A DNA stretch of 61,305 nt, the filler included. It is 12 parts of 12 records of this genome, joined end to end, with 100 filler letters (N's around TTAATTAATTAA, not from the genome) between each part and the next. Parts side by side here need not be neighbours in the genome. Positions count along the whole stretch, not along the records: positions 37,910 to 43,983 come from SRR15195285_8502; 11 more parts are not named here. One strand, written 5' to 3'. Each line of letters begins with the position of its first letter. Position 1 is the stretch's first letter. Position numbers and translations under genes: made by a program. Shown here one piece after another: positions 8,414-61,091 of the stretch. A model generated the notes under the pieces. It ran no database searches, was not told where the DNA came from, and saw only the letters and a list, made by a program, of their open reading frames with translations.

Positions 8414-8513
8414 NNNNNNNNNNNNNNNNNNNNNNNNNNNNNNNNNNNNNNNNNNNNTTAATTAATTAANNNNNNNNNNNNNNNNNNNNNNNNNNNNNNN
8501 NNNNNNNNNNNNN
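8414..8513. other. Artificial contig spacer (44N-TTAATTAATTAA-44N); also at 12725-12824, 17088-17187, 23211-23310, 27564-27663, 31928-32027, 37810-37909, 43984-44083, 47199-47298, 51766-51865 and 55880-55979
   Basis: Identical 100-nt structure with a six-frame stop linker at all 11 positions; genes are truncated at several of them. Confidence 0.99.
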
Positions 8514-12549: not shown

Positions 12550-12824
12550 GTACCCGGTACCCGCTCGAGTACCGTTGGATGGAGGGTAGACGCTTTTGTT
12601 GAGTCTACTATCATAGTACCCTCGTGGTTGGTTGGATCTTGGATGTCCGCCTTTCCCCAGCGCACCAAACCGGGTTGTGGATTCTTTCTCACGAACACGG
12701 GTTAGAAATGGAATTCATTGTTGTNNNNNNNNNNNNNNNNNNNNNNNNNNNNNNNNNNNNNNNNNNNNTTAATTAATTAANNNNNNNNNNNNNNNNNNNN
12801 NNNNNNNNNNNNNNNNNNNNNNNN

Positions 12825-16962: not shown

Positions 16963-17619
16963 GCAGCGTGCCGTCGTGCGTCTCAACCGCCGTGCGAAGT
17001 CCGAACTGTCAACTGATGTGGGAAGCGGCGCTGGACGGCATTCCCGACTGCCGATTCCGGAGAAGGCACACTCTCGGTCTCGAGGAANNNNNNNNNNNNN
17101 NNNNNNNNNNNNNNNNNNNNNNNNNNNNNNNTTAATTAATTAANNNNNNNNNNNNNNNNNNNNNNNNNNNNNNNNNNNNNNNNNNNNATTTGCAATTCGT
17201 GTGTGGTACTGAATTCCCATTTACGCCCAGAATTTACGTCACAACACAAAGTCAATGTGAAGTTAGCTCGAAACCTACTAGATCTAGATCTATCCTAGAT
17301 AAGGGTTCTCTCGAAGATCCCCGAGGCGTTTTCGACCGACGTTGGCGGCCATCCAGCCAGCCAGCAGAAGCGCGTGCCCCTGCCAGCCAGAGCCGCCACC
17401 ATGACCATCCCTGCCCGAGCCCTTTGAGTGTAGAGCTGGACGCGCCCACCGCCGCAGCGTCGACAGCGCTGAGTGGGCTGGGGACCCTGGCCTGAGCGGC
17501 CTTGCCGTACGTCATCGCGGGAGACTAGCTGCGGCAAGCGGGTGGCCCGGTGGGAGCCCGGCAGTGCGGGCTGCGGTGCGGCGCAGATAAACCGGTTGTT
17601 GTTTTTGCTTCACTGCGGG

Positions 17620-22616: not shown

Positions 22617-23312
22617 CCTCCCTGCGCCTTCGCACCACCCGCCTCCTCCTCGTCTGCGCCTCTGACCCTCGCCCTGCGAGCACCACGCCCGGCACACAGT
22701 ACTATATCCCGCTCAGCGCGGCCTCGATGAGCCACTGCCAGTGCCACCGGCGGGATAGATCAATGTGTACACACACCGTAGTTTTGGTCCGAAAGGCACA
22801 TCGAATTTTCAATGTGGCTGTGCCCGAACGTTTGGAAAATGTGTGCAGGATTCTATACTACAGTTTATGTCCATACTCTGAGTAGCAGCACACCCTGGTT
22901 TTCATGAAGTGTTACCTGTGCATGTACGTATGTGATGTGCGCTTAGCTTCAAAACCACGGCTGGAATTGCTACTAGATCTATTCATAATACCCTCGCTCC
23001 CCCTCGCGTTCGAGTCCCCTTGCGATTGCTCGGTCGAGGACGGTCACCTCATCGCTCATGTCATGCCCGCGGTGAACTGTACTACCGGTACAGATCGATT
23101 TATTTTTTCTAATCAAAATCACAGGGCTATACAGCCATACCCACGCGCACACATGCATCGCGACTCAGGTCTACGATCTTAAAAGTGGGTATGTCGGCGG
23201 CCCCGGGCTANNNNNNNNNNNNNNNNNNNNNNNNNNNNNNNNNNNNNNNNNNNNTTAATTAATTAANNNNNNNNNNNNNNNNNNNNNNNNNNNNNNNNNN
23301 NNNNNNNNNNTG

Positions 23313-27563: not shown

Positions 27564-27664
27564 NNNNNNNNNNNNNNNNNNNNNNNNNNNNNNNNNNNNN
27601 NNNNNNNTTAATTAATTAANNNNNNNNNNNNNNNNNNNNNNNNNNNNNNNNNNNNNNNNNNNNC

Positions 27665-30600
27665 CCCCCCCCGCCGGTTCGCCCTTCGGTCGTCATGGAG
27701 GGCGCGAATAACTGCGAAGACGATCTTACACACAAGCTACTGGATATTGTCAAACAGAATGAGAGCCTCCGTAGACACCAGGAGAACGGCGCACCGGAGC
27801 ACGTCGTGGACCAGATCGCTCAGCTGTTGCAGTACCATATCAATTGCTATATCAACAACGAGATACCAGGGCAACCGCAGAATGTGCACAAAAGTGGTAG
27901 GCCGATTAAATCGATCGCGCAGCGACTGAAAGGCAAAGCCGGTCGGATCAGATGTAACTTGATGGGCAAGCGTGTGGATTTCTCCGCGCGCACAGTCATA
28001 GGCGGCGATCCAAACTTGTTCCTGGATCAAGTTGGGGTGCCGCGGTCAATTTGTAAGACCTTGACTTACCCTGAAATTGTTACTCGATTCAACAGGGACA
28101 GGCTGAAAAAGCTTGTAGAGAACGGCCCAGACGAGCATCCTGGCGCCAGGTTCGTGTACCGCGAAGATGGACAGCGGATTGATTTGCGTTGGATCAAAGA
28201 TAGGACCGAAGTTGCGCTGACTTTGGGCAGCAAGGTCGAGCGTCACGTACAAGACAACGATTTGGTCCTGTTCAACCGACAGCCGTCGCTTCACAAGGCT
28301 TCAATCATGGGCCACAGAGTAAAGATCCTGCCCTGGTCTACCTTCCGGCTTAATCTGTCGGCCACCCCACCGTACAATGCTGATTTCGACGGGGACGAAA
28401 TGAATCTGCATGTGCCTCAGAGCTGGGAGTGCAAAGCAGAAATTCAGGAACTGATGATGATCACAAGGCAAATTGTGTCACCGCAAGCCAATGGTCCTGT
28501 TCTTGGAATCGTGCAGGACAGCTGTCTAGCGTGCAAGCGAATGACGGAGCGGAATACTTTTTTGGATAAGGCCACAACCTTTCAGCTTCTCATGCGCATC
28601 CTCGATTGGGATGGTGTTGTACCTATACCAGCAATTCTCAAGGGCGCTAATGGTCGCGGGCCTCTGTGGACGGGCAAGCAGATTTTCCAAATCCTGATCC
28701 CAGACGTGTGCTCACTGAGAAGGACCAACATCCAGCACAACGATAAAGACAAAGCAGACGTGAAGGCGGGAATTATGACTCCGAGTGACTCGAAGTGTTT
28801 AATCCAGGATGGTGAGTTGCTGTCGGGGGTTGCCGACAAGAAGATTATGGGTGCCAAAAACGGAGGATTGATCCACATCATCTGGCACGAGCTGGGCCCT
28901 GAGGGTGCCAACAAGTTCATTACTGGAGCGCAGCGATTGGTGGACAACTGGTTAGTGAACGTCGGCTTCAGTATCGGAATTGGAGATACTGTTGCTGACG
29001 ATGCCACCAAAAGTGACATCGAGGAAACCATCAAAGAATCCAAGGGCAAAGTGACAAAGTTCGTGAAACAAGCCCAGCAGAATGAGCTCCAGGTGTTGCC
29101 CGGTATGACACTTCAGGGCACATTTGAGTCAAAGGTCAACGAGGCCTTGAATAGTTGCATCACGCAAGCAGGCAAAGCCGCACAGAACAGCCTTGACTAC
29201 TTGAACAACGTGCGGGCGATGGTAATGGCTGGATCCAAAGGGTCTTCTCTGAACATCTCTCAGATGATGGCTTGCGTTGGCCAGCAGAACGTCGAAGGCA
29301 AGAGAATCAAGTTCTCGTTCCGCGACAGGACTCTGCCCCATTTCAAAAAGTTCAACCTTGGTCCAGAATCTCGTGGATTTGTAGGCAACTCGTACCTGCG
29401 CGGCCTGACACCGCAAGAATTCTTCTTCCATTCCATGGGTGGTCGCGAAGGGATCATTGACACGGCTTGCAAGACTGCAGAGACCGGCTACATTCAACGA
29501 CGCCTGGTGAAGTCCATGGAGGACATCTGCATTCGCTATGACGGCACAGTTCGCAACCAGCTTGACCACGTGATCCAGTTCCTGTACGGAGAGGACGGTA
29601 TGGACGGCTCGCGCGTTGAGGACCAGAAGGTGGAGTCTGTAATTTGCAGCGACAAGGTATTCGAGCAGAAGTTCAAGCATGATCTCGAGAACGTAGATTA
29701 CGGTGTTAACTTCATGGACCCGGCAGTAATTGAACAGGTCCGCAACAGTGAGACAGAGCTGCAGGCAATAGCTCAAGAGTTTCAACAGATAAAGGATGAC
29801 CGCGAGGACATTCGCCGGTACATGCACGTGCTGCCGATGCCAAAAGACACTGCGCTCTCGGAAGAAGGAACGGATGTGGGCGTGTTCCCGGTTAATCTAG
29901 CACGGCTGGTTGCCAACGCGAAGAAAGTGATGGCCAAAAGCATCGTAGGCTCGGAGGTGATCTCAGATTTGTTTCCGTCCACTATCATCACCGAGCTTGC
30001 CGAGCTGGTGAATAGGCTGAAGCGGTTCCTCATCCATGGCGATGATCCATTGGCAGTCGAGGCACAGGACAACGCAATTCAATTCTTCTCTCGGCACCTC
30101 CGCTCGTATCTTTCTTCGAAGCGCGTCCTGTTTGTACACCGTCTCAACCTGGACGGCTTCAAGTTTTTGATCGGAGAGATCGAGGATCGTTTTTATCACG
30201 CTGTTGTAAATCCTGGAGAAATGGTGGGGTCCATTTGCGCGCAATCGATTGGGGAGCCGGCGACACAGATGACTCTCAACACATTCCACCACGCTGGTAA
30301 CTCAGCCAAAAATGTCACGCTTGGTGTGCCGCGACTCAAGGAGATCATCAACGTGGCCAAAACGCCGAAGACACCATCGATGACAGTATTCTTGGACAAA
30401 GAGTACGCAGGTGATCAGAGCCAGGCCCGAAAGATCCAACAGAAACTCGAGTATACAATTCTCGCGGACGTCGTAGACTCCATGACAATCCACTACGACC
30501 CTGTCATGCTCAAATCAGTCGTAGAGGAGGACCAGAATATCATTGACGATTACTACGGGCTTGAGGACGATGATGAGGAGGCGCTGCAGGCGCGGCTATC

Positions 30601-31927
30601 TCCGTGGCTGCTTCGTTTAGAGCTGAACTACGTGGCCATTCGCGAGAAGAGCCTGGAGGCTGAGCAGATCGTTACGCGCCTCACGAGCGATCAGGAAGGA
30701 GGGCTGAACCTGGACGAGCATTTGGAATGCATTGCCAGCCCAGCCAACCATTTGCATCCTGTCGTGCGCATTCGGCCAAAGCGCGTCGATGGTGACGATG
30801 AAGACAAAGATCAGGACATGCAAAAGTATCTGAAGAGCATCGGGGAGGTACTGTTGACAAAACTAGAGCTTGGCGGTATTGAAGGAATTCAAAAAGCCAC
30901 CATGGCAGACGAAAAACGCTTCGAGGAAGACGAGAACGGCGCACTGGACGACCGCGACAAGTTCCCGGAGGAATGGACGCTGATTACAGAGGGCAGCTCA
31001 TTGCTCTCTGTCATGAACGTCGAAGGTGTCGACTTTCGTCGCTGCAAGACAAACCATATCACAGAAATCTATGAGGTACTGGGAATCGAAGCTGCGCGCT
31101 GTGCACTGTTGCGCGAGCTTCGCCACGTTATCTCATTTGACAGCACTTCTGTCAACTATCGTCACCTGGCACTGATTTCAGACGTCATGACATACCGTGG
31201 TAACTTCATGGCAATTACACGCCATGGCATCAATCGCTCTGATGCCGGGTGCTTGATGCGGTGTTCCTTTGAGGAGACTGTAGAGATTTTGATGGACGCC
31301 AGCTGCTTTTCCACCACGGACCACCTGCGGGGAGTCAGTGAAAACGTAATGCTTGGGCAGCTTTGCCCGCTCGGGACGGGTACCTTCGATCTAGTACTGA
31401 ACGAGGATATGCTGAAGGACGCCATCCCCAACCCTGACGACGTGATCGACGAAGACGAGGATGAAGCCTTCGGGGAAGACAATGGGGCGAGTCCTTTTAG
31501 TGGTGCGCCTTTCTTTCACTGCCAACCGTTGTTTGAGTGTGTTGCACTGTTGCTGCGAGATTGCTGACTCCGCCTGTTGACGTTTCAGCAATGACACCGG
31601 CACAAGACTCGCCGTTCGCGACTGGTGCCTCGCCGTTCCCCGAATTCTCGCCAGTGGCAGACAATGCTGGCTTCTCGCCGGTTGCTGGTGGCTTCTCGCC
31701 AGTCGCCGATGATGCCATAGACCTAGGAGGCGGTGGCGGAGCGGATGGGTACTCACCTACGTCCCCCACCTACTCGTGAGTTCGCCCATCAGAAAATGGC
31801 TGCAGAAGCCGAGTGTAGCGCGACACGCGACATGCATGCTCTTACCGTCGGTTTGACACGTGTGCGTGCACTGCCGGTTGGCGAGCGCAGGCCGACGAGC
31901 CCGTCGTACTCACCGACAAGCCCGTCG
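27665..31927 (+). CDS. RPB1: RNA polymerase II largest subunit, truncated at both ends
   Basis: NLMGKRVDFSAR, NRQPSLH, PYNADFDGDEMN, bridge helix and trigger loop GEPATQMTLNTFH. Introns 31503-31588 and 31776-31890 lead into YSPTSPT/YSPTSPS heptads. Confidence 0.97.
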
Positions 31928-32276
31928 NNNNNNNNNNNNNNNNNNNNNNNNNNNNNNNNNNNNNNNNNNNNTTAATTAATTAANNNNNNNNNNNNNNNNN
32001 NNNNNNNNNNNNNNNNNNNNNNNNNNNTGAATAGGGCTGCGAGTACCATAGCAGCATGCACGCGCTATAGTAGCTACCTTGTAGTAGATTACGAGGTACT
32101 GTACTACTGTAGCTCCCCCGCCGTCACGGTGCACGCGATCGTACTATAGTACGTATCCGGCGTCCGTCCGTCGCGCGTGTGGACGAACTAGTAGTGCTAC
32201 TACAGAAGATCTAGGATCGCCTAGTAAAAGAAAGGCGCGAGCGTTGCAGATCGAGTCGGCCGCAGGGTGCGACGCG

Positions 32277-37809: not shown

Positions 37810-38064
37810 NNNNNNNNNNNNNNNNNNNNNNNNNNNNNNNNNNNNNNNNNNNNTTAATTAATTAANNNNNNNNNNNNNNNNNNNNNNNNNNNNNNNNNNN
37901 NNNNNNNNNTGAGTTCGAGTTTACCGTGGGGAGACCTGATCGAACTCTGGTACTCTGCTGGCTCGGCGGCCGACGTTGACGCAAAGAGACAGCACGCTAG
38001 GTACTAGTAGCTCTCTCTCTTCGAGCTGCGCGAACGGCTCCGTCTCTCGATCACTACAGTAGAG

Positions 38065-39082: not shown

Positions 39083-39925
39083 GTGTTTGTGCCGATGAGC
39101 AGGAATGAATTTACCATTGCTGTCGGTTGGCTTGCTTTTGAACCGCGACATTACTCGCGCACGTGGCTATTCGTGTCCGTGTGCTTTCTGCTACTCGTGT
39201 GGTTTAGACGGAACAATCACCAGTGCTCACTTCGAAGCTCATCGTAACGTTTCAACTGTCTACCCCGTTGTGGATTGCAGTCTCTACAGTATCACCCACG
39301 TCCACCGCAAACTCGTGCCAATCAGACCAGTTTCCGTACGTTAGAGTCGGCACAAGAGCCACTCCTGAGCTGTCGGCAACGCGGCAGTCGCCTTGGTATA
39401 CCACGCCTCTACATCCCGCATTGTCCAGTGGCAACGCAAACGCAGACCCTCCTCCATCGCCACCCCCAAGCCAGCTGCTACCTAAATCGGCGACGGTGGT
39501 CTGTTGCTGCTTGGCCATGATTCATGTGAGCGTGGCACCCCCAGCGTCTTTGACATACTTTAGTAGTTGTGGTCCTTTAACACTGTGGATAGCGACAGCT
39601 GGTGTCAATTCCATGCACGCACACACGCGCAAAGGCAGCAATGGTAGTAGAAGCACCCGCGTAGCCAGAAACCAAATCATTAGCACTCTGTGTAGACGGC
39701 GTTGTATTGACTGGGACGCGCACCCCCACCCGTGCCATGGTGCGAGAAACGGAGCAACAACAAAATGGATTCATTTTTGTGGAGGCTAACAATGGCGAGA
39801 GCTTTTCCATCTACACCAACTAGAATAATATGAGCTATCTAGCCACTCCAGCCATGATAGCTAGGGGCAATTTCAACGTAATAGTGCTGTGCTACTGCCC
39901 TGCGGCTGTTTTCTTCAGCAATCCC

Positions 39926-42900
39926 TCACGCAGCGCCGAACCGCAGCGTGAAGCGATACTGCGTGTCTTGATCCGACAGCTGCCACGGATACCTGTGCTC
40001 CAAAACACTCAAGGAAACTCAGCAGACAGGTCTTGTGCAATGCATCTGATCTAACTTGAATGTTCTCTCAACAAGACGTGATGGGCACACACCAGAACGG
40101 GTAATTTCTGCGGCCACAGTGTCGTTGCTTGTTAGATCGTTAGATACAGGACACGGGAAAGCAGTCGCCTACTGGACCAGGTAGGTAGTCCAGTACTGCT
40201 AGCACTCACGTATTCCAAATGTTGTTGACGAGACTGAAGTGCACACCCCCCGCTGGGTCCGGCGTGAGACGTCCACCGCCATAGTGCGTGCCACCGTCGA
40301 CCCTCGGCGTCGGCGCTGGGTTACGCTCGCCTACGCTGACCAGCGCAACGTCCTGTGATATAAGCTCTAGCGCCGTGCCGCCTCCGTTCCGCTGCCAGCG
40401 CGCGCCGGTGTTCACCGCGTGCAGGTGCATGTTCGAACCTACACTCCAAAACACGGAAAACTCAGCAGACAGGTCTTGTGTAATGCATCTAATCTAACTT
40501 GAATATTCTCTCAACAAGACGCGATGGGCATGCACCAGGGAACGGCAGAACATCGGCTGGATCGATCCAGCTACCAAGCTTGTCGATCTCGAGCTGTAGC
40601 TCCTCGGTCTCGTTGCATGGCGGTGAGAAAGATAGCCACATGGTCTCCTTGTGCTTCGTCGGTGTCTTCTCCAGGGTGCGCAGCGAGATATCGAGCGAGT
40701 AGAGCGGAGTCGGCGCCGAGGTGTTCTTAATCGCTGTGTACAGCACGCTCAGCCGCCGTGGTGCGCCACCTTCCTTCCACACCTTCTCGGGCAGCGTTAG
40801 GTTAAGTAGGATCTCGCTCGAGCCGTCGTCGTTCTCTCGCGTCGCCATGGCAATCACTGTTCCAGTTGCATTGCAACCTGTCGCGCCGATGGAACTACCG
40901 CTCGTAGCCTCGCCAGGTGCCGCGAAGTTGCCGTAGTTAGGTCTGCTAAGTGTGCCATACGCCGTCACCCAATCGTGCATCTGGTTGCCAGCGAGCGTCT
41001 GGTAGTGAAACTCGGCGAGAGGGTTGGCCGGTGAGGCCAGTGGCGCCTGTGTATGATTCACTGCTATACCACCGCCTCCAGTATCGAGGTAGGTGATGCC
41101 ACCCGCCGCATTGAAGGCGAGAGTCACACCAGCGTTTGCGGTTTTGATCTTCTGATCTGGGACAAACGGTACCGACTTCCAAGCGGCTTTGTGCGCTGAC
41201 GTTGGCATCGGCAGCGACCACTTGCCTGCGAAAATACCGTGATATCAACTTTTCTGGTGTCTGTCCTGAGCCTGCCTTGGCAAATGATCGCTTTTATCAG
41301 AAAACGGCAACAGAAGCGGCTTTTGTTTCCGCACCGGAAGCCCAGCCTGGGGAAATCTCCGCCATTGCTTTGATCATCGGCGGCGCGCATGGTGACTTGC
41401 CCACGACGAGGGCCTGCACTGCGTTGAGGATGAACATCCTCTGCTCGTACCAGGCGTCGACGCAAGGCCAGCTTGCTGGCATGCCTTGAGGGAAGGCAGG
41501 GTCGGGGCCGGTGGTAAGGTCCGAGTTGTTGAAGCCCACTTTTTTGCACTTTCCGCCGCTGGTCCCCCATCTACAGAGAGACAGCGAAGCTAGGTCCAGC
41601 GCTGGTGGGTACTTGTAGCGACAGCTCTGACCACATGGTTGGCGCTTGACTTACGTATGTTCGCCGGATTTGATCAGCAGCCGATCGAATGTCGCCTCCG
41701 CATCGTTCCCTTCGCGCCAATGCCCTGCCTCCACACACTGTGTGCGTACGCGCATCGCAGCCCTTGTCGTCGCGACTTTGATGGGGTCGGTCGATGCTCC
41801 ATCTGGACATTTCAGCAGAGAAATTTTCAAGAGGAGCAGAGCAACTAGTGTACACTAGCTCAGCTGGCAAGAGAGCCACTGTTGCTCACAGATCCATGAA
41901 TCGCCCATTTCGTGCGTGAGCACTGGCAGTGTATCTTGCACTGGTAAGACTGTCTTGACGAAATCATCAAACGCATCCGAGGCTCGAATATTGGCATTCG
42001 GAAACTCCGCCTGCACGCGCTGGTAGACCTGGAGCGCGGCGGTGAACTCATGTGGGCCCTAACCGAACACAGATTACAAGAGCTGTGGGTCAGTCGCACG
42101 CAGAACAAACGCGCCATCCATCCATCAATCCAGCAGAGCGGAGCGTACCTGGTTGTCGCCACGCCACGATGTGCATAGAGCGGTCTTGCTGGCGTTAACG
42201 TACGCGCAGTCGTCTTGTGTGATGCCCCCATAGCCGTGCGGGTGCATGATCGTCAGCGCAGACGCACCAGATGCTGGGTCTTGCCATTTGAATACCTTCG
42301 TCGGCCACTGGCTCGTATTGTCTCCATCGAAGAAAGCCAACGGCCTCGGGCAGTCGTTCTCGCCGACTGAGATTGCCTTCACGCCCAGTTTCGAGAGAAG
42401 TGGCAGGACACCACGCGTGAGCCCCGGCACGTCTCGCTGTGAGTACGTCATTCGACGCGTCTTCCCGAAGCGCGTGTCCAGTTTGTGCGTCAAATTGATC
42501 GCGACTTCGAAGAACTCGGGCGAGTACATCTCTGGCTCACCGTTGTGGGGAAACGCCGGCCACGAGATTCCGCCTTCGGGGCCCGCCGCAATCGCAGTAT
42601 TGATCTCAGCCAGAGTGGTGGCGTTCGGGCATTGCAGGTTTGAAGGGCGGCCGGGCATTGAGTTGACGGTGGTTTCATTGCAGTGCAGCAGGATGTCGAG
42701 AATGAAGGAGAAGCCCAGCCAGGTGTATGTCCAGCCCTTCGCGACCGTCTCGTTGGATGTGCGGAACTGCGCAGCTGTGTCCATGGCGCGCTCGACGTAC
42801 CTGCGCCATGCGATAAAATGACAATTCCACATCAGCAGCACGCAAGATAGATAGAGAGCACGATGCGGAACAGTCACGAGTATATCGGTGCGTGCGTGCG

Positions 42901-43756
42901 CACCTGTCAATATACTCGTTGATCACGTCTCTGACCTCGCCCTGCGAACAGCCGTGATCAATCGTTAAAACGTTCGACAGACTCTACAAAGACAGCAGCT
43001 GATAGCCGTACAAATACTTACTGTGTAGCCGACGTCAAGGTGGTTGCCAAAGACGATGAAGACCTCTTCCGCCTCAGTGTTGGGGTTGGTGGGCGGCGGC
43101 GGCGGACCTGGGTGCGGCGATGGCGACGGGGTGTGGTTCGGACACACCCACTCAACATTCGGCCCGCTTGGTGGGCTGCAAGTCTGCGACCACGCGTACT
43201 TTCGCTGCGGCGAGTAGCTGTCGACGTCAACAATGCTATTGCATGCGCCCTTGTAGCTTGGTGGCCTGCTGCAGGTGCCCGAGCGCTCTGGCGAATACGG
43301 CCAACCGGATGGGCACTTGGCGGCAGGCCAGTAGATACCGCATGTCACCTCCCAGGCTTGCTTCGCCGCGAGGCCCGGCGGAGAGCCCTCCTGCCATTTC
43401 CCGCCGGGCGCCATTTGCTGGATCGTTGTGCACTTGCTGTTCCCGGGGTGCCCCTTCGTCGGCGCACAGCACGGCGGTCGGTCGCAGCCGCGGGCCTTGT
43501 TCGCGACGGTGAGATAGTCCCAGCCCACGGGGCAGTGGCCGTCGTACTCCGCCTCGCAGACGGCGTCCGTGTTGCTGGCGTGCAGCCGCCGCCGCCGCGC
43601 CGCCGCCTCCTCGTCGCCTGTCTGCACGTGGTTGTCTACCTTGTTGTTCGGCGCGGCACTGGCAGCCTCAGCCTGGCACTGTGCCGCGAGCTGCAGCAAC
43701 AGCAGCGTGCTCAGCGGCGGCAGCGGCACGAGGGACGCCGTCCGCATCGACGCCAT
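39926..43756 (-). CDS. Secreted DUF5054/GH38-like glycoside hydrolase with two N-terminal CPW-WPC-like domains, multi-exon
   Basis: Signal-like N-terminus; VFIVFGNHLDVGYT, W.AFPHN.E.E, SQRDVPG.TR, DNQGP, EMGDSWIYG.STDP.K, EHTWG, KTPTKHKETMW.SF and NNIWNTNYPFWYP..FTL. Reconstructed across GT-AG introns including a 15-nt exon at 40093-40107; stop TGA 39926-39928. Confidence 0.8.
39993..40092 (-). mobile_element. Introner-like repeated spliceosomal intron, copy A (100 nt)
   Basis: GT...AG intron, roughly 85% identical by eye to 40439-40535; internal inverted repeat GTCTTGT/ACAAGAC. Confidence 0.75.
40439..40535 (-). mobile_element. Introner-like repeated spliceosomal intron, copy B (97 nt)
   Basis: GT...AG intron near-identical to 39993-40092; the flanking exons are unrelated apart from CTG|GT at the junction. 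Confidence 0.75.
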
Positions 43757-44331
43757 TTTGAAGGAGGCCTCGCGATGTGCCGTATTTTTGCGGGTATGAC
43801 TAGCGTAAGCGCTAAGCCGTAGGAACCTAAGGCCCAATTCTGTACAGTGTACACCGCGCACAGTGAAACGCGCGCTGAGCGTGCCATGGCAGCTAATGGT
43901 ACTGTACTCGAACTACGATACGTCAGATCCCGGAGGTTCGCCCGCGCGCGACCACGCGCGGGCCCGCGCGGAGCATCCAACCTNNNNNNNNNNNNNNNNN
44001 NNNNNNNNNNNNNNNNNNNNNNNNNNNTTAATTAATTAANNNNNNNNNNNNNNNNNNNNNNNNNNNNNNNNNNNNNNNNNNNNGCCAGTGGCCAGTTGTG
44101 GTGTAAACCACTACTAGTAGATCTAGCTAGAGTGTCTTGTGTGCAGGGGACGTTGGCCGTTGGGCCGTTCGCCGCCCTGCCCTGTCGACCTCGAGACGAA
44201 TGTCGACGGGGGTGACTGGTTAGAAGGACTAGGAGCAGCTATTAGGCCAAGACTGAACCGTGCTGGCGTGGCTGTGACACGCGGCAGTGGCTGCTACGTG
44301 CCAGCGGCAGTGGCTGCTCTCGATCGGCTCG

Positions 44332-47198: not shown

Positions 47199-47412
47199 NN
47201 NNNNNNNNNNNNNNNNNNNNNNNNNNNNNNNNNNNNNNNNNNTTAATTAATTAANNNNNNNNNNNNNNNNNNNNNNNNNNNNNNNNNNNNNNNNNNNNTG
47301 GTGTGGGGTGGGGTGGCGACCCGCGGGTCGCGACGCACGGACGCACGGCAGGCGGGCGTGCTGAGTCCAGTCACGGTGAGGGTAACCAGTCACTACCGTA
47401 GACCGTTCGGCC

Positions 47413-49821
47413 ATGGAGCCGTCGGTCATCGTCATCGGCATCACGGGCCCGACGCGTTGTGGCAAGGGGCGCGTGTCCAAGGCGCTCGCCGAGACGCTCG
47501 GGAACGTCGCCGTCGTCGGGCAGGACGCGCACTGGTTCCGACCCTGGCCAGACGCTGCAACCGGCGAGGCGAGCGCTGAGGAGCCCGAGTGCACCGACCA
47601 CGCGAAGTTCGCGGAGAAGATTCAGGAAGCGACAGCGGCGGCAGCAGCATCGGGTGCGCGTTTCGTTATCGCGGAGGGATACCAGCTGCTGCATGACGCC
47701 TCTGTCCGGGCGCTGCTCGGGCCAATTCACTGGCTCCAAATCAGCCGAGACGAGTGCATTCGCCGCCGCTCGGCTCCAAGAGACGAGCTTCGTAACCCGC
47801 ACCCAATCGACGCCACCAAGATGAAACGTGTCGTCTGGCCTGCCTACCTAAGATACTGCACTGCGAGCGTGGATCCGCTTGGAGCACGTGTGCGGCGACA
47901 CGTGGGGCCGTCCACCGAGGATGAGGTTGCGGCCACCGTCAGTCAGATCTTGGCGTCTTTGCCTGTGGAAGAGGGGATACCAGGCGGCGCGGAAGAAGAG
48001 AGACCAGGTGGTGCGATGGCACCAGCCGGTGACTGGACGACGGAGAGGCCGCTGTATATTACGAATGTGGGCCATCCGTCATTCCTTGACTGCACCTCTG
48101 CCCAAGGTCCCGGCAAGTACGATGTCACTATGTGGGGTGACGGCGTCGATGTTGGGGAGTACCCTGACTACATACAATGGATTCTCAAGCCGGTGGAAGG
48201 TGAAGTAGACACATTTTTCATCCTCAACAAAGCTCACAACAAGTTTCTGGACTCGCATGGTCGTGGAGTGTGGCTGTGGGGCGATGGTGTCGACATAGGC
48301 CAGGACCCGGACGGGATCAAGTGGAGGCGCGAAGTGGCTGGCGCAGGAGACACCTTCTACCTCATTCACAAAAAGAGTAACAAATTTCTCGACAGCCCTG
48401 GCGGCCCACAAGTAAGCTTGTGGGGCGACGGTGTCAACACAGGAGAGATCCCACAGAACCTTCAATGGCAACTCAAGAGAGCGGGTGCAGAGTGGGTCAC
48501 ACTCGGCGGGCTCGCCAAGCACGGTGGCAAAGTTGGCAAGGTGACTGAGTTCTGCCATGGTGATGTGACACTCTGGCACGCGGACGGCGAGAGGAGTGGA
48601 TTTATCAACCCCATGACACTAAGCCGGCCGAGCGAGGCAGAAGCCACGTCATTCGAAGCAGCGCCAAAAATGCTGTTTCATGGCACGTCGCTGGAGAACG
48701 CTGTCAGAATCCAAGACGGTGGGTTTGATCTCGCTCGCTGTGGAACTGGCTACAACCTGGTAAATATCATTGGCGGCTCAAAGCTCGGTCGAGGAGTTTA
48801 CATGGGTGAAGAGATGGGAGGTAATTTTGGGGCAGGACCTTGGTGTTACGCAACGGGTGGAGAAATCTATCCTTACCTGAATGTTAAAGAAAACGATTTC
48901 GGTGGTTGTGTGCTGAAGCTGAGCGTCGACACGGGTCGAGTGTATCAAGTCACAGGCCGCACAGACCCTCTACTAACACGTTGGGCTGAAAGTGGCTACG
49001 ACAGTGTCTATAAACCCGCTGCTGTGGCTATTCATGACACCTCGGGTGATCATGGTAACCACCACCAGCACATGCCCGCGGAATACTGCATCGCAGACCC
49101 TGCGCGCATTAAAGTGGTAGGCTACTCTATCACCGATGAAGCACGGAAGGCAGGATGGAAGGTAACGGATAGACTGATGCCTCCGGGAGCTTCTGAGAAT
49201 TCTCGTGGTGCAGAGTGTCGTGGCGATACGCATCCAGCGTACAGTATGTGCTTCAACCCTGACGCGCGCGTGCGTATGGCGGATGGCACAGCAAAGCACG
49301 CCAAAGCCGTGCAGGTAGGCGACCAGCTAGCGACACCGACTGGGGAATCTACAACCGTGCTGGCTTGCACGATTCAGGCTAGCTGCCGGCGTTGGCTGGT
49401 CCAGATCGAAGATATGTATATCTCGACGATGCATCGGATCCAGAATCCGCGTGGGGAATGGATCGAACCCATCTTCTACCCAGGAGCGACAATGACCACG
49501 CACGACTGCGCGTTGCACAACTTCGTCGTCGAGGGCAGCGTCCCGATCATAGTATGTGATGTGGTCGCCTCAACCATTGGGACGTACTGCGTAGGGTCGC
49601 ACGATTTTCAGTGGCCCACGCATGAGCTCTGGGGTGGGCACAACATTGTGAATCTCTTTGCGCAGCGAGATGACTGGCCGAACATCCGAATCGGGGTGAG
49701 CAACACCTTCCTAGCAGTGATGAAGAATCCTGAGTTTGCGCGGAAGTATTTGGATCAGTGCGACGGCACAAAACGCAGCACACGAATGTTGCTGCGAGAG
49801 TATGGATGGATAGGCGATTGA
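47413..49821 (+). CDS. Nicotinamide-riboside-kinase-like + ricin-B lectin + Gig2/PARP-like ADP-ribosyltransferase + Hint/Vint multidomain protein (802 aa)
   Basis: NRK-like: IGITGPTRCGKG, VGQD, VIAEGYQL, EC..RR, VVWPAY. Three beta-trefoil-like repeats (F.I.NK...FLD...V.LWGDG....QW). ART: LFHGTS, LGRGVY, GYDSV, EYCIADP.RI. Hint: CFNPDARVRMADG...VQVGD, ISTMH, LHNFVV, TIG. Confidence 0.8.
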   Translation: MEPSVIVIGITGPTRCGKGRVSKALAETLGNVAVVGQDAHWFRPWPDAATGEASAEEPECTDHAKFAEKIQEATAAAAASGARFVIAEGYQLLHDASVRALLGPIHWLQISRDECIRRRSAPRDELRNPHPIDATKMKRVVWPAYLRYCTASVDPLGARVRRHVGPSTEDEVAATVSQILASLPVEEGIPGGAEEERPGGAMAPAGDWTTERPLYITNVGHPSFLDCTSAQGPGKYDVTMWGDGVDVGEYPDYIQWILKPVEGEVDTFFILNKAHNKFLDSHGRGVWLWGDGVDIGQDPDGIKWRREVAGAGDTFYLIHKKSNKFLDSPGGPQVSLWGDGVNTGEIPQNLQWQLKRAGAEWVTLGGLAKHGGKVGKVTEFCHGDVTLWHADGERSGFINPMTLSRPSEAEATSFEAAPKMLFHGTSLENAVRIQDGGFDLARCGTGYNLVNIIGGSKLGRGVYMGEEMGGNFGAGPWCYATGGEIYPYLNVKENDFGGCVLKLSVDTGRVYQVTGRTDPLLTRWAESGYDSVYKPAAVAIHDTSGDHGNHHQHMPAEYCIADPARIKVVGYSITDEARKAGWKVTDRLMPPGASENSRGAECRGDTHPAYSMCFNPDARVRMADGTAKHAKAVQVGDQLATPTGESTTVLACTIQASCRRWLVQIEDMYISTMHRIQNPRGEWIEPIFYPGATMTTHDCALHNFVVEGSVPIIVCDVVASTIGTYCVGSHDFQWPTHELWGGHNIVNLFAQRDDWPNIRIGVSNTFLAVMKNPEFARKYLDQCDGTKRSTRMLLREYGWIGD

Positions 49822-51351: not shown

Positions 51352-51986
51352 CCTGTCTTCACGCACACCTGCACAATCAACTGACGACCTCGCTTACGGC
51401 TCACCCCCAAGCGTCGTCGCTGGTGGCGTGCTCAGCCTGTCGCTGTCACGCGGTTATCGTTGGAAGATGGGATAGCCAACACACGTACTCCAGCAGCTTC
51501 TCGCCGATCTCCAACTGAGTCTAGCCCGTCGCGCGGATTGCGCTGCGCTGTCGCCGCGGTGCCGCGCGCGCGGCTGATCTAATCCCCTATCCATGCATTG
51601 ACAATGGATTATCAATGCATGTAAATTGCAATTTACGATTTTGATATTCGAATCGTACATCCCGGGTACTACAGCTGTACCGGTAGCCTGACTGTACTTC
51701 GTCATTTGTATCATTTGTAATCGTAATCGTAATAAGTGTGAAGCAATCAATATAGGTCCCTAGTANNNNNNNNNNNNNNNNNNNNNNNNNNNNNNNNNNN
51801 NNNNNNNNNTTAATTAATTAANNNNNNNNNNNNNNNNNNNNNNNNNNNNNNNNNNNNNNNNNNNNGATGGGTGATTTAAGGTAGGTGTGCGGGCGCGCGG
51901 GACAAAGTTGGCGTGAACGAAGGTGCTCTGCGGTTAGAACAGATCGCTCGCGCCGCGCCTATATAGCGGCGAGTGGCATCGGCGAT

Positions 51987-55682: not shown

Positions 55683-56153
55683 GTCGGGCGCGACCTAGTC
55701 GACGAGCTGCGTGCGCTGCAGGCGGCCTGCTGCTGCTGACTGACACGCGTTCGGGATGTAGCCCTGTAGGATCCTACTCGCTGTACTCAATTACTAGATC
55801 TAGTATCTTAGAGCGTGCATGTTGCGCGGTCCCTACGCAACGACGGTTGGTACAAAGCGAGAAACGGTACCTGGGACCTNNNNNNNNNNNNNNNNNNNNN
55901 NNNNNNNNNNNNNNNNNNNNNNNTTAATTAATTAANNNNNNNNNNNNNNNNNNNNNNNNNNNNNNNNNNNNNNNNNNNNAAATTCTTAGGCCGATCCTGG
56001 CATTTTTCCTAAATATATTGGCGCGCGAACGGATGACGGCGGGTGAGGGATCGGCGTGGCCCGCCGGGGTGCACCGTGATCGGCAGCCACGCACCCAGCC
56101 GCCAGAGCGAGTACTGTATTGTGTATACGCGTCACGGTGCGCGATACCGACAG

Positions 56154-57698: not shown

Positions 57699-60600
57699 TC
57701 ACGGGCACATCACAACACCTGTGGCGGCTTCGCATGTGCGCCCAAACAGCGCCAGCACTACGAGCAGGTCTGCAGTGCCTATGATCCCGTCGCCTGTAGG
57801 GTCCATGCAGATTTCGCCTTCTCCGGACTGCAATACCAAACACTCCACCAAGCTCAGCAGTTCGGCACTGCCGTCGGTCGGGGGCTCAGGCTGCTGAATT
57901 GCTGTCTCGAATTCCGCGGCGCACGGAGCTACCGCCTCACAGTTGGCCCACTCGGCTGGGCACATCGCAGACACCGCCTCGATCATCTCGGGTAGCTGCA
58001 GCTGGAATTGGCAGTCCATGAACGCGGTGCAGAGGGAGCTCAGGCTACACGCCCCGACAAACTCATCGATGGGGGTCGCTGGGTCGTCTTCCGTGTTCAG
58101 CGCCGCAAGGCAAGCGTCATCAGCAAAGCAGGCACCCTCTTGTGTTGCACAGGTTGGGTCGGCTGGCACCTCGCTTTGCAGCTGGCACTCCACGAAAGTT
58201 GAGCAGAGGGCGTCCGCGTCGCATGCCACCTGTGTTTCGTCATCTGGCGTCGACGGGTCATCTTCTGTGTTCAGTGCACCTAAGCATGCCTGGCTGTTGA
58301 AGCATGCATCAGCGGGGGCCTGGCACGCAGCTGCGATATCATACCCTTCGGCTGCCGCAGCAATGTCGCAATCCCTGTATGTCACACAAAGCTCACTCGC
58401 ATCGCAAGCTAGTGCTGCCTCATCGTCAGGGGTGGCAGGATCGTCTTCAGTAGAGGCGGCAGTATAGCACTGTGCGTTCATCATACAGCTTCCCATTTCA
58501 TCTGGGCATGGTGCATCGACAGGCAGCTGCGAATATATATGGCAAGCTGCAGCACCACAAGATTGTGTACGTCAGTTGTTGCTTCAAGATGAACGGGTAA
58601 GTTGTGGCATTCCGATTGAAGAGGTATGTCGAAACTTACACATCAATGCAGCTCCAAGTGGATCTGCCAGCAGAGCTATCAGTACCTCATCAACGCGAGT
58701 CGCAGGATCATTGACCGTTGATATCGCAAACAAGCAGTCCACATCTGAAACGCACGCATCACCTTCTGCCTGGCACGGATCAGGCTCTCCCCCAACACAA
58801 GTTCCATCGTCCAGACACACGTCGTTTACACTGAGGATGTCTCCATCGTTGCATGGCGTGCCTGGCTCTTGCCCAGTGCAGTCTGAAAGACAATCGCCCT
58901 GGTCATTAGCAAGCTCGGCACACGCAAAGTTGCCGAACTGATTGGTGTCTGTGTCGCAAACTCCATCGGCGCCTCTGAAGTCGCGACAGTTGCCGGAGCA
59001 GTCGACCCACGACCAATAGTTTGCGTCACATGGGCTTCCCAGAGCACAGTCTCCTCGGTCAAACTGTCGTGCCTCGCAGTTGAATCGTGGGTCGCAGATC
59101 CCGTCGCCTAGGGGATTAGTCGCTGGAGGATCGGGAATTGGGTAGCACACCCCATCGCATCCCAGCACTTCACCGTGGACAGGGCACGGGTCATCGCCAC
59201 CGGTCAAGCAGTCGCCACCATCGAAACCAGCAGCCTCGCAGTTCAGGTCCGCATGCCACATATTGTACGCAGCTACTAGCGGATTAAAACTTGGGCCGTT
59301 AGGTGCGCTGGCCGCATCATCACACCAGCCATTGCCCCAATTCTCTTGAGACACGCATCGACCGTACACTGGTTGTGCGTAACCTGGCTGCCCGTGCGTT
59401 GGACCGTAGGTGCAGGCTGCAGCCGCAAGCGTGAAGACTGCCGTGGCACCATGCGCTTCCGTAGCGAACACACTGTCGGATGTACATGCAGGCTCCTCTG
59501 GCTCGACACATTTGCACGAGTCGAAGTCATAACCTCCACCCCAGCACGTATCGTCACCAGTCGGACTGATTGATGTGTCGCAACAGCTGCTGTAGGAACT
59601 TTCACCCGCCCAGCACGCGGCCTCGCCCCGCCAGTCTTGGCAGAGCCCGCAGCTCGCAGCACACGCTGCATGGAGTGCATCTCTATCCCCAGGACTGTAG
59701 GTCCCAGTATCGGCCACGCAGTCGAACGCAGGGTCAGCCCATTCCGCACAGGTGTGCCCAGCTGCATCAACGAACCCAGGCTGGTCGCCACACCACCATT
59801 TGGCGGGTGTTCCAGCACATGCTTCTGATGTGCACACATCATTGTCAGTGGACACATCTTCATCGTCGCATGGAGCACCGTCAGCCAATCCAGTACAGTC
59901 GGTGGGAATTGACGGCGGTGGAGGAGCAGGAGGAGGGGCACTTGCACTCCAGCCGTCGCAGCACAGGTCATACTGCGTCGTGCCAAACCAGCAACCAACG
60001 TCCCCGGTGGGGCCCGCAGCTGTGTCGCAGCAGCTGGCAAAAGTGAAGGTCGCATCCCAGTGGCATCCGACCCGGAACTCTCCTGAGCAGATCCCGCATG
60101 AAATCGGGCACGCCGCTTTGATATCGTCGCTGCTGGTGCCACCAGACAAGCTTGTGTCATCGCATCCCCAGCCTTGGTAAGCTGAGCAGGCCGCTCCGGC
60201 TCCGTCGGCGAAGTCAGGGTCGTCTGCAGCAGCAGTACAGTCTACCGGCGGTGGAGGTGGTGGGGCAGGCGGTGGCGGGGGGGCAGGTGGTGGTGGTGGT
60301 GGCGCCGGGGGGGCGGGCGCACAGTTGAAGCAGGTCAGCGGGCAGGCTTCGTACAAGGCTTGACGGTCCGCCTCCGCGTAGAGGCCATCGGTGTCAAGGA
60401 CACAGTTGAACCCCACCCAGTCCGCACACCCGTAGGCGCCGGCGTCGACAAAGTCCGGGTCGTCTGCGCAGGTAGGTGGAGGAGCAGGCGAAGGAGCTGG
60501 AGCCGCCGTATCGGCTGGCGTGAGATCTGTGCAGCAGAGATCGAATTGCGTCGATCCGAACCAGCAGCTGTCGTCGCCGGTGGGCCCTGCGGCCGTGTCG

Positions 60601-60875
60601 CAGCAGCCTGCGAAAGTGTAGGTCGCGTCCCACGCACATCCTGGCCGGAACGCTCCCGAGCAGATGCCACAGGACAGCGGGCATGCAGCTTCGAGATCCT
60701 CAGTGCTCGTGCCACCGGAGAAGGTCGTGTCGTCGCACCCGTAGCCCTGGTATGTCCAGCAGGCCGCGCCGGCGCCATCAACAAACGCATCGTCGTCCTG
60801 GCACACCTCCTGCGCGCGGCCCCGTGCAGCAAGGCCGAGCAGCGCTACTGCAACGGCGTGGCCCATCACCATCAT
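57699..60875 (-). CDS. Secreted Cys-rich repeat protein (ShK-like, LNR-like and Dictyostelium-type repeats, Pro linkers) with C-terminal dockerin-like motif; 2 exons
   Basis: Signal peptide MMVMGHAVAVALLGLAARGRA; repeats C.DD..FVD..G..C...ACP.SCG.C, GNGWCD..NC...FDGGDC and G.PC.D....ND.C. Intron 58547-58639 joins the two ORFs in frame. Ends DPTGDGIIGTADLLVVLALFG..C. Confidence 0.8.
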
Positions 60876-61091
60876 CGCCTTTTAAGAGCGATCAACTCCC
60901 ACGCAACCTCGCGGGGTTACTATATTAACAAGGAGCGGCTCGCCTCCCCCCTCGACCCCTGGGTGACAAGTTCCCCCACCACCGCACGCACTGCCCCCTT
61001 CCTCAGCTGGACCGACGGAGCTGCACGTACCCCTATAGCGTACACCAACAACGCCTATATACGCAGGAGCAACCCCCGGGAGAGGAGCTCG

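Follow-up and report, generated by a model that had tools for sequence, protein, structure and literature searches.

Two near-identical introns within one gene of a marine protist: a likely same-gene intron duplication

Near-identical introns confined to a single gene are known from fungi and animals. Here we compare with them a pair of introns, A and B, that lie in one DUF5054/GH38-like gene of the window, the whole 61,305-nt stretch of DNA that was analyzed. The fungal cases, called same-gene duplications, are given in passages of PMC3609843 as 82 members, with 24 species surveyed (van der Burgt et al. 2012), and the same passages list three same-gene-duplicated gained introns in Caenorhabditis elegans. 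Like the fungal duplicates as portrayed there, A and B are near-identical, low in number and housed in one gene, and they fit the transposition subtype. Unlike the fungal and animal cases, they belong to an uncultured marine protist, probably a member of Picozoa. They also differ from the fungal pairs in that their polarity can be argued from an orthologue and from uninterrupted sites, and in that they are already about 11% diverged. Near-identical introns were reportedly found in Oikopleura dioica by Denoeud et al. in 2010, and Tarrio et al. are said to have described a duplicated intron in the Drosophila Xdh gene in 1998. Both are said to be cases of intron copies in a single gene or in low number, taken as traces of intron transposition, and, unlike the present host, both concern animal lineages.

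A second family of comparisons is provided by introners. In the portions of that literature used here, introner families comprise tens to thousands of copies in unrelated genes, many with target-site duplications (TSDs) or terminal inverted repeats (TIRs). Excerpts on the published screens state that a family is kept only if it has four or more introns and these come from different paralogy groups (PMC9860276, PMC12130899). They also state that similarity must start within 5 exonic or 10 intronic bases at both boundaries of both introns, and that the TSD test used at least 15 copies (PMC9860276). For the introner elements of Micromonas, a model of reverse splicing into R-loops is proposed in the excerpted text of PMC4540971 (Simmons et al. 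2015), and as given there it would cover a within-gene hop such as one from B to A.

Introns A and B resemble introners, as these excerpts present them, in splice-site-to-splice-site similarity, coding-strand orientation, new lineage-specific positions and a marine picoeukaryotic host. They differ in that two copies were found, both in one gene, and in that no TSD or TIR is evident between these two apart from the consensus of the splice sites. A further parallel is offered by fungal introner-like elements (ILEs), which passages of PMC3609843 describe as near-identical spliceosomal introns believed to proliferate before decaying into ordinary ones. ILEs are longer than regular introns and have a stable predicted structure, whereas A and B are of ordinary length for their gene and fold no better than shuffled sequence.

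Two introns alike from splice site to splice site

Introns A and B match at 86 of 97 aligned bases (88.7%). Their 11 mismatches are transitions only, and one 3-nt indel (3 gap columns) completes the differences. The BLASTN match between them in the window has E = 3e-30, their local alignment reaches z = 48 (100 shuffles), and they form the sole pair with z above 2.5 among the 36 pairs of the gene's nine introns. Because no other pair exceeds that value, the middle intron M is unrelated to A and B. The gene and the parts of it that matter here are these:

39926..43756, minus strand: host gene, whole coding region; 10 exons, 9 introns of 80-109 nt, 992 aa, DUF5054/GH38-like
40536..41225, minus strand: exon 7, upstream of intron B; 690 nt, weak DUF5054 match
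40439..40535, minus strand: intron B; 97 nt, phase 1, GT..AG
40210..40438, minus strand: exon 8, between B and M; 229 nt
40108..40209, minus strand: middle intron M; 102 nt, phase 2, unrelated to A and B
40093..40107, minus strand: micro-exon between M and A; 15 nt, encodes (T)NYPF(W)
39993..40092, minus strand: intron A, the gene's last intron; 100 nt, phase 2, GT..AG
39926..39992, minus strand: last exon; 67 nt including the TGA stop

Read from 40092 to 39993, intron A has the ends ..TTCTG|GTGTGTG...GCACAG|GTATCC, and intron B, read from 40535 to 40439, has the ends ..CCCTG|GTGCATG...GTGTAG|GTTCGA. The A-B alignment runs from GT to AG, in keeping with the boundary rule of the introner screen (Gozashti et al. 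2022). The BLAST match itself (39998-40100 versus 40444-40545) stops 5-6 nt inside one end and reaches 8-10 nt into the upstream exon (CCGTT..CTG). An end-anchored comparison with randomly drawn exonic sites of the host gene gives this upstream resemblance P = 0.04, or 0.16 when only TG-ending sites are drawn. It is compatible with chance, and we treat the exon flanks as unrelated; the similarity boundary at the splice sites therefore stands. Homology-guided targeting through the CCGTTC..TG upstream match was rejected because the match is not significant. The downstream exons are unlike past the GT, and the flanks encode different conserved protein motifs, ..LPFPG|SNMHLH.. at B and ..NYPFW|YPWQ.. 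at A. CTG|GT is the context of both introns, with B in phase 1 and A in phase 2.

Most of what the initial annotation had read from this pair is upheld by these results. Its coordinates for the two introns (39993-40092 and 40439-40535) are exact, on a gene that runs along the minus strand, and it correctly described splice-site-bounded copies in CTG|GT contexts and different phases, with similarity ending at the splice sites and an unrelated intron between them. Its figure of about 85% identity was too low, the true value being nearer 89%; it took nearly all differences to be transitions, and all 11 mismatches are. The inverted repeat GTCTTGT/ACAAGAC that it pointed out does occur in both introns, with a long loop between the 7-nt arms. 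Folding gives this repeat no structural support: the fold energies of A and B are no better than those of shuffled sequence (z = -0.12 and +1.23), and z is about 0 across A, B and the orthologue of B in a relative.

Several special features that the pair might have carried were considered and set aside. A structured RNA or snoRNA within the introns, the 7-nt inverted repeat included, found no support, given the fold z near 0 and an Rfam search of 39800-40700 that returned zero families at E <= 10. Apparent TIRs are explained in that the complementarity of the ends is the splice consensus of this genome, GTGCG.../...CGCAG, which is found in introns 2 and 6 too. As for TSDs, only G|GT...AG|GT is common to both copies, which is not locus-specific, and just two copies can be compared. 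The lengths of A and B fall within the range of the gene's other introns. Strain-level indels occur inside both introns: contigs of runs X2 and X14 have a 4-nt deletion in A at 40078, and contigs of X1, X2 and X3 have a 1-nt deletion in B at 40502.

Judged by homology and by the open frame, A and B are true GT-AG introns. They have the GT and AG ends of U2-type introns, and their removal restores a reading frame that matches homologues. The spliced 10-exon model is a 992-aa open reading frame with zero internal stops, and it shares 384 identical residues over 798 alignment columns with the protein of a relative, P0005 (807 aa). Exon 7 matches Pfam family PF16477 (DUF5054) at E = 1.4e-4, under the curated cut-off, and a tblastn search with P0005 finds exon 8 at 54.5% identity across 77 aa. 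The junction at B is uninterrupted in P0001, P0003, P0005 and P0007 (..P(F/I)(P/N/T)G|SNMH..), P0005 reading ..INGSNMHMH.. there. The junction at A, NYPFW|YPWQ, is continuous in P0005 and in the more distant relative L002, and the micro-exon motif NIWNTNYPFWYPWQ is uninterrupted in P0005, which reads ..NIWNTNYPFWYPWQ.. at that site. Translation through intron B meets a stop after 14 codons. Relative to a closer relative, L001, exon 8 is 95.5% identical over 110 nt versus 84.5% for intron B. Independent contigs from three studies recover the locus with both introns, and one of them (X2 record 7) runs through A, M and exon 8 and reaches into B.

The substitutions between the copies have an ordinary explanation. 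When L001 is used as the third sequence, GC>AT accounts for 9 of the 10 changes that can be polarized in A and B, and 6 of these 10 lie at a CpG of L001. The all-transition pattern is mostly CpG decay, and an origin by RIP-like mutation or by editing was dropped because CpG decay suffices. Intron B differs from its L001 counterpart at 15.5% of sites, against a dS of 0.25 for exon 7 (dN 0.046), and intron 6 is 88% identical to L001. These comparisons suggest that intron B evolves about neutrally.

Relatives, direction of copying and copy number

Relatives L001 to L003 come from one protein-alignment scan of metagenome contigs. In L001, whose DNA matches the window at 87% identity over 1,150 nt, an intron B occupies the same site (L001 937-1039). 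P0002, a read-through protein, likewise carries an orthologous intron B. The sites are uninterrupted farther away: L002 (44% amino acid identity) is intron-free at both, reading ..TTTTG|GTACCC.. at the A site, and P0001, P0003, P0007 and L003 have no intron at the B site, although L003 instead has one 10 nt downstream of it. Empty sites of this kind are what the initial annotation had advised looking for in orthologues. A 6-nt insertion in the B orthologue of L001 (991-1004) yields a perfect 14-nt palindrome, TCTTGTGCACAAGA.

From these sequences we infer the direction and timing of the copying. Pairwise mismatches number 11 between A and B, 13 between A and the B of L001, and 15 between B and the B of L001; changes unique to one sequence number 4 in A, 6 in B and 8 in L001, with one three-way site. 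If A predated the split from L001, the branch leading to it should be the longest, whereas it is the shortest; B was therefore probably the donor, and A a copy made after the split from L001. On balance we lean toward a B that was present in the common ancestor of the host and the L001 lineage and was later copied to create A. The event had been called recent in the initial annotation, which is apt only in a relative sense: the A-B divergence of about 11% is about two thirds of that between B and its orthologue, in a relative whose exons stand at dS 0.25.

A divergent contig, X3 record 12 (16 other letters, 8 gaps), aligns from 40229 to 40091, exactly two bases into A, and leaves 19 letters unaligned. 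Such an end might come from a relative whose A site is uninterrupted, though it amounts to a hint only.

The A site lies in a 14-codon conserved stretch, NNIWNTNYPFWYPW, that has introns at no fewer than seven different positions in five lineages:

second N of NNIWNTNYPFWYPW: L003
after I: L002
first W: P0007
T: window
after T: L002
P: P0001/P0003
second W: window

The corresponding intron regions are 39993-40209 of the window, 3545-3736 of L002, and around 530-920 and 1050 of L003; positions in the P entries are deduced from read-through translations alone. Micro-exons occur here in the window (15 nt) and in L002 (9 nt). Such a scatter suggests a hot spot where introns are gained, or slide, in a lineage-specific manner.

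The initial annotation had proposed a candidate introner family, for which further copies would be expected. No third copy was found on either strand of the window, in which A and B have no other match longer than 23 nt, and a word-11 self-comparison of the window returned only the A-B pair and one unrelated repeat. Scans with degenerate end and core motifs in the window and L001-L003 matched A, B and the B of L001 only. Metagenome contigs from three DNA runs of three studies were aligned to 39750-40900 at 80% likeness; these runs contain 52-61% of the contig's sampled words at a word depth of about 3-6. Among the 17 contig pieces listed (runs X1, X2, X3 and X14; 4 more are unlisted) none is an intron-only piece from another locus, and every listed piece touching an intron extends into the flanks of its own locus or is identical to the locus. 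The alignment was sensitive enough to report one 41-nt piece and others at about 85% identity; metagenome contigs demonstrate presence, not absence. The 23-mer common to A and B has 0 exact matches in genome_contigs and viral_contigs, a weak result in that both are poor in protist DNA; the metagenome_contigs collection was scanned with the protein alignment only.

The search thus yields two copies in a single gene, short of the four or more introns from different paralogy groups by which introner families are recognized. As far as the data reach, the pair falls back to the local intron-copy event that the initial annotation had itself named as the outcome of a two-copy count.

One contig, X3 record 10 (225 nt), joins 40062 to 40506 and so combines the 5' part of B with the 3' part of A, skipping 443 nt that include exon 8. 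Its two sides diverge unequally, with 8 other letters in 101 versus 3 in 124. It is probably an assembly chimera through the stretch shared by A and B, and it might be a real allele produced by unequal recombination.

How the pair may have arisen

The reading that we favor, and consider likely, is that A and B are two copies of an ordinary spliceosomal intron that was duplicated within its gene, with no demonstrated mobile family behind them. In the sequence searched, near-identical introns are confined to one gene and the flanking exons are not duplicated. A copy of an ancestral intron B would have entered, with its orientation unchanged, a TG|GT site 244 coding nt downstream to give intron A, and both copies would then have drifted about neutrally, chiefly through CpG-type GC>AT transitions. 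Propagation by local hopping or reverse splicing, as the initial annotation put it, is a fair reading of true introns that are copies of each other in non-homologous contexts and different phases.

The mechanism, which we also infer, we tentatively take to be intron transposition by reverse splicing in cis. Excised intron-B RNA, still bound to the spliceosome, would re-insert into its own gene. The target could be a transcript, in which case reverse transcription and recombination over a short tract would follow, or it could be the displaced DNA strand of a co-transcriptional R-loop behind the polymerase. Reverse splicing would account for the exact GT/AG ends, the coding-strand orientation, the shared gene, and the retention of the donor and of M. 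The R-loop version would account in addition for the locality of the event together with the retained B and M.

The main rival places the same event at the DNA level, where double-strand break repair or a replication template switch at the A site would have copied B in cis. The TG|GT and AG|GT microhomologies would prime and resolve the exchange, and selection would spare only an excisable copy. We regard this as unlikely, and it is a variant of mechanism nested within the favored identity of the pair. Donor and copy lie only 346 nt apart in the same orientation, both sites share a 5' G|GT and a 3' AG|GT, with the weak CCGTT..CTG resemblance upstream, and retention of the donor and of M would need no special assumption. 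However, exact ends at both splice sites would then arise through selection alone and not from the mechanism, the upstream resemblance is not significant, and the shared GGT is splice-site context that is present at intron 2 too.

That A and B are independent insertions of a mobile introner with copies elsewhere in the genome, in a lineage without described introners, seems to us improbable. The similarity of the pair does begin and end where the published screen's boundary rule places it, the phases differ and the contexts are non-homologous, and intron gain appears active in the group, given the many lineage-specific intron positions in the same gene region of relatives. Introners are moreover over-represented in aquatic species according to excerpts of PMC9860276 (39/230 versus 35/1367 non-aquatic). 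Nevertheless, only these two copies were found across the window, L001-L003, the contigs of three metagenomes and the two collection scans, against a screen that calls for four or more introns spread over different paralogy groups. Between the two copies no locus-specific TSD stands out, and the apparent TIR is splice consensus. Nor are A and B longer (97-100 versus 80-109 nt) or more structured than their neighbors. It is doubtful, too, that they are the first members to come to light of an introner in Picozoa, or in this lineage, that is low in copy number or decays fast and would also lie behind the scattered intron positions.

Two further accounts deserve little credence. Unrelated older introns could have been homogenized by ectopic gene conversion, or old introns could have been kept alike by selection, for example on an intronic RNA; we judge this very improbable. 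Concerted evolution would give the same excess of A-B likeness (11 mismatches versus 15 between B and its orthologue), but conversion requires flanking homology, and the surrounding exons are unrelated. A conversion tract would also have to match both splice sites of both introns, and both sites are intron-free in distant relatives. There is no sign of constraint: B diverges from L001 much as intron 6 does and near dS. No Rfam family and no fold signal were found, and P0002 shows a change (V>F, hence G>T) in the inverted repeat's 5' arm but an intact 3' arm.

Segmental duplication of an exon-intron block whose exons have since diverged, or an assembly artifact, is the least credible account. 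In the passages of PMC3609843, the segmental type makes up half of the same-gene intron duplicates of fungi, and X3 record 10, which joins B to A, indicates that assemblers can go wrong here. Yet the flanking exons are dissimilar, the phases differ, and the two flank motifs are each conserved and occur once apiece in intron-less homologues. An artifact is at odds with the recurrence of the locus in contigs of three independent studies.

Some observations weigh against the duplication as we read it, in its identity, its direction or its mechanism. The sole RNA-library contig on the region (X14 record 6, 39823-40232) retains A and M and does not cover B, and no spliced joint was among the pieces listed; the library may contain DNA or unspliced precursor RNA, so that the contig speaks neither for nor against splicing. 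The two-copy count draws on about 73 kb of sequence, together with metagenome contigs that are filtered and can drop sequence, rather than on a whole genome, which leaves more room for an introner, and the tests are blind to family members below about 80% likeness. In L001 the contig breaks off at window position 40329, short of the A site. The mismatch counts of 11, 13 and 15 are statistically indistinguishable, so direction and timing are merely indicated, and concerted evolution would give the same pattern among A, B and the B of L001. No sequence feature separates copying at the RNA level from copying at the DNA level. Finally, reverse splicing into a transcript from which B had been removed would tend to lose B and M unless the tract was short, which favors the R-loop version or a DNA-level copy.

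Source organism and significance

The window consists of 12 separate contigs joined by 11 identical linkers (44 N, TTAATTAATTAA, 44 N), at these positions:

linkers 1-6: 8414-8513, 12725-12824, 17088-17187, 23211-23310, 27564-27663, 31928-32027
linkers 7-11: 37810-37909, 43984-44083, 47199-47298, 51766-51865, 55880-55979

Because of these linkers, the window is not one stretch of a chromosome but has the layout of a concatenated metagenome-assembled genome, and genes that flank a linker are not genomic neighbors. The intron pair sits on the contig at 37910-43983, parts of which are present in 19 public runs from 16 studies; almost all of these runs are metagenomes of marine or seawater origin. 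A separate contig carries the RNA polymerase II largest subunit (RPB1; 27665-31567, plus strand) as a single open frame of 1,300 aa. This protein is 96% and 89% identical to two metagenome proteins and 81% identical to a EukProt entry labeled COSAG05, versus only about 52-56% for all other proteins among the matches listed, organism-named ones included. According to a preprint, COSAG05 belongs to the co-assembled single-cell genomes of picozoan cells published by Schön et al. 2021. The host is probably a picozoan, an uncultured marine protist, provided that the contigs are correctly binned and the COSAG05 label is right.

Other contigs of the window hold features of their own. Several other intron-free frames are very long (up to 2,020 aa), in contrast to the nine introns of the DUF5054-like gene. 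A direct repeat of 267 nt (59958-60224 and 60531-60797, 75% identical) lies within a long minus-strand frame at 58584-60881 and is probably an internal protein repeat. An 811-aa frame at 47386-49821 (plus strand) has a C-terminal Vint/Hint-type domain (PF14623, E = 7.7e-8).

Introns A and B are one more case of a known category, same-gene intron duplication, which is rare but already described. The origin of new spliceosomal introns is still debated, and clear donor-copy pairs are scarce outside high-copy introner families. The present pair is a clean example, with exact splice-site ends, a phase difference, unrelated flanks, an orthologue by which one copy can be dated, and distant relatives in which the sites are uninterrupted. 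It comes from a deep, uncultured marine lineage without an intron-gain literature: in the library searched, no paper contains both Picozoa and introner. Further copies in a full genome, if found, would raise the importance of the pair. Likewise, an A site seen both filled and uninterrupted in populations would let reverse splicing be tested against DNA-level copying. Should an introner prove to be involved, the pair would be a local hop caught in the act, giving donor, target and polarity for spliceosome-mediated transposition.

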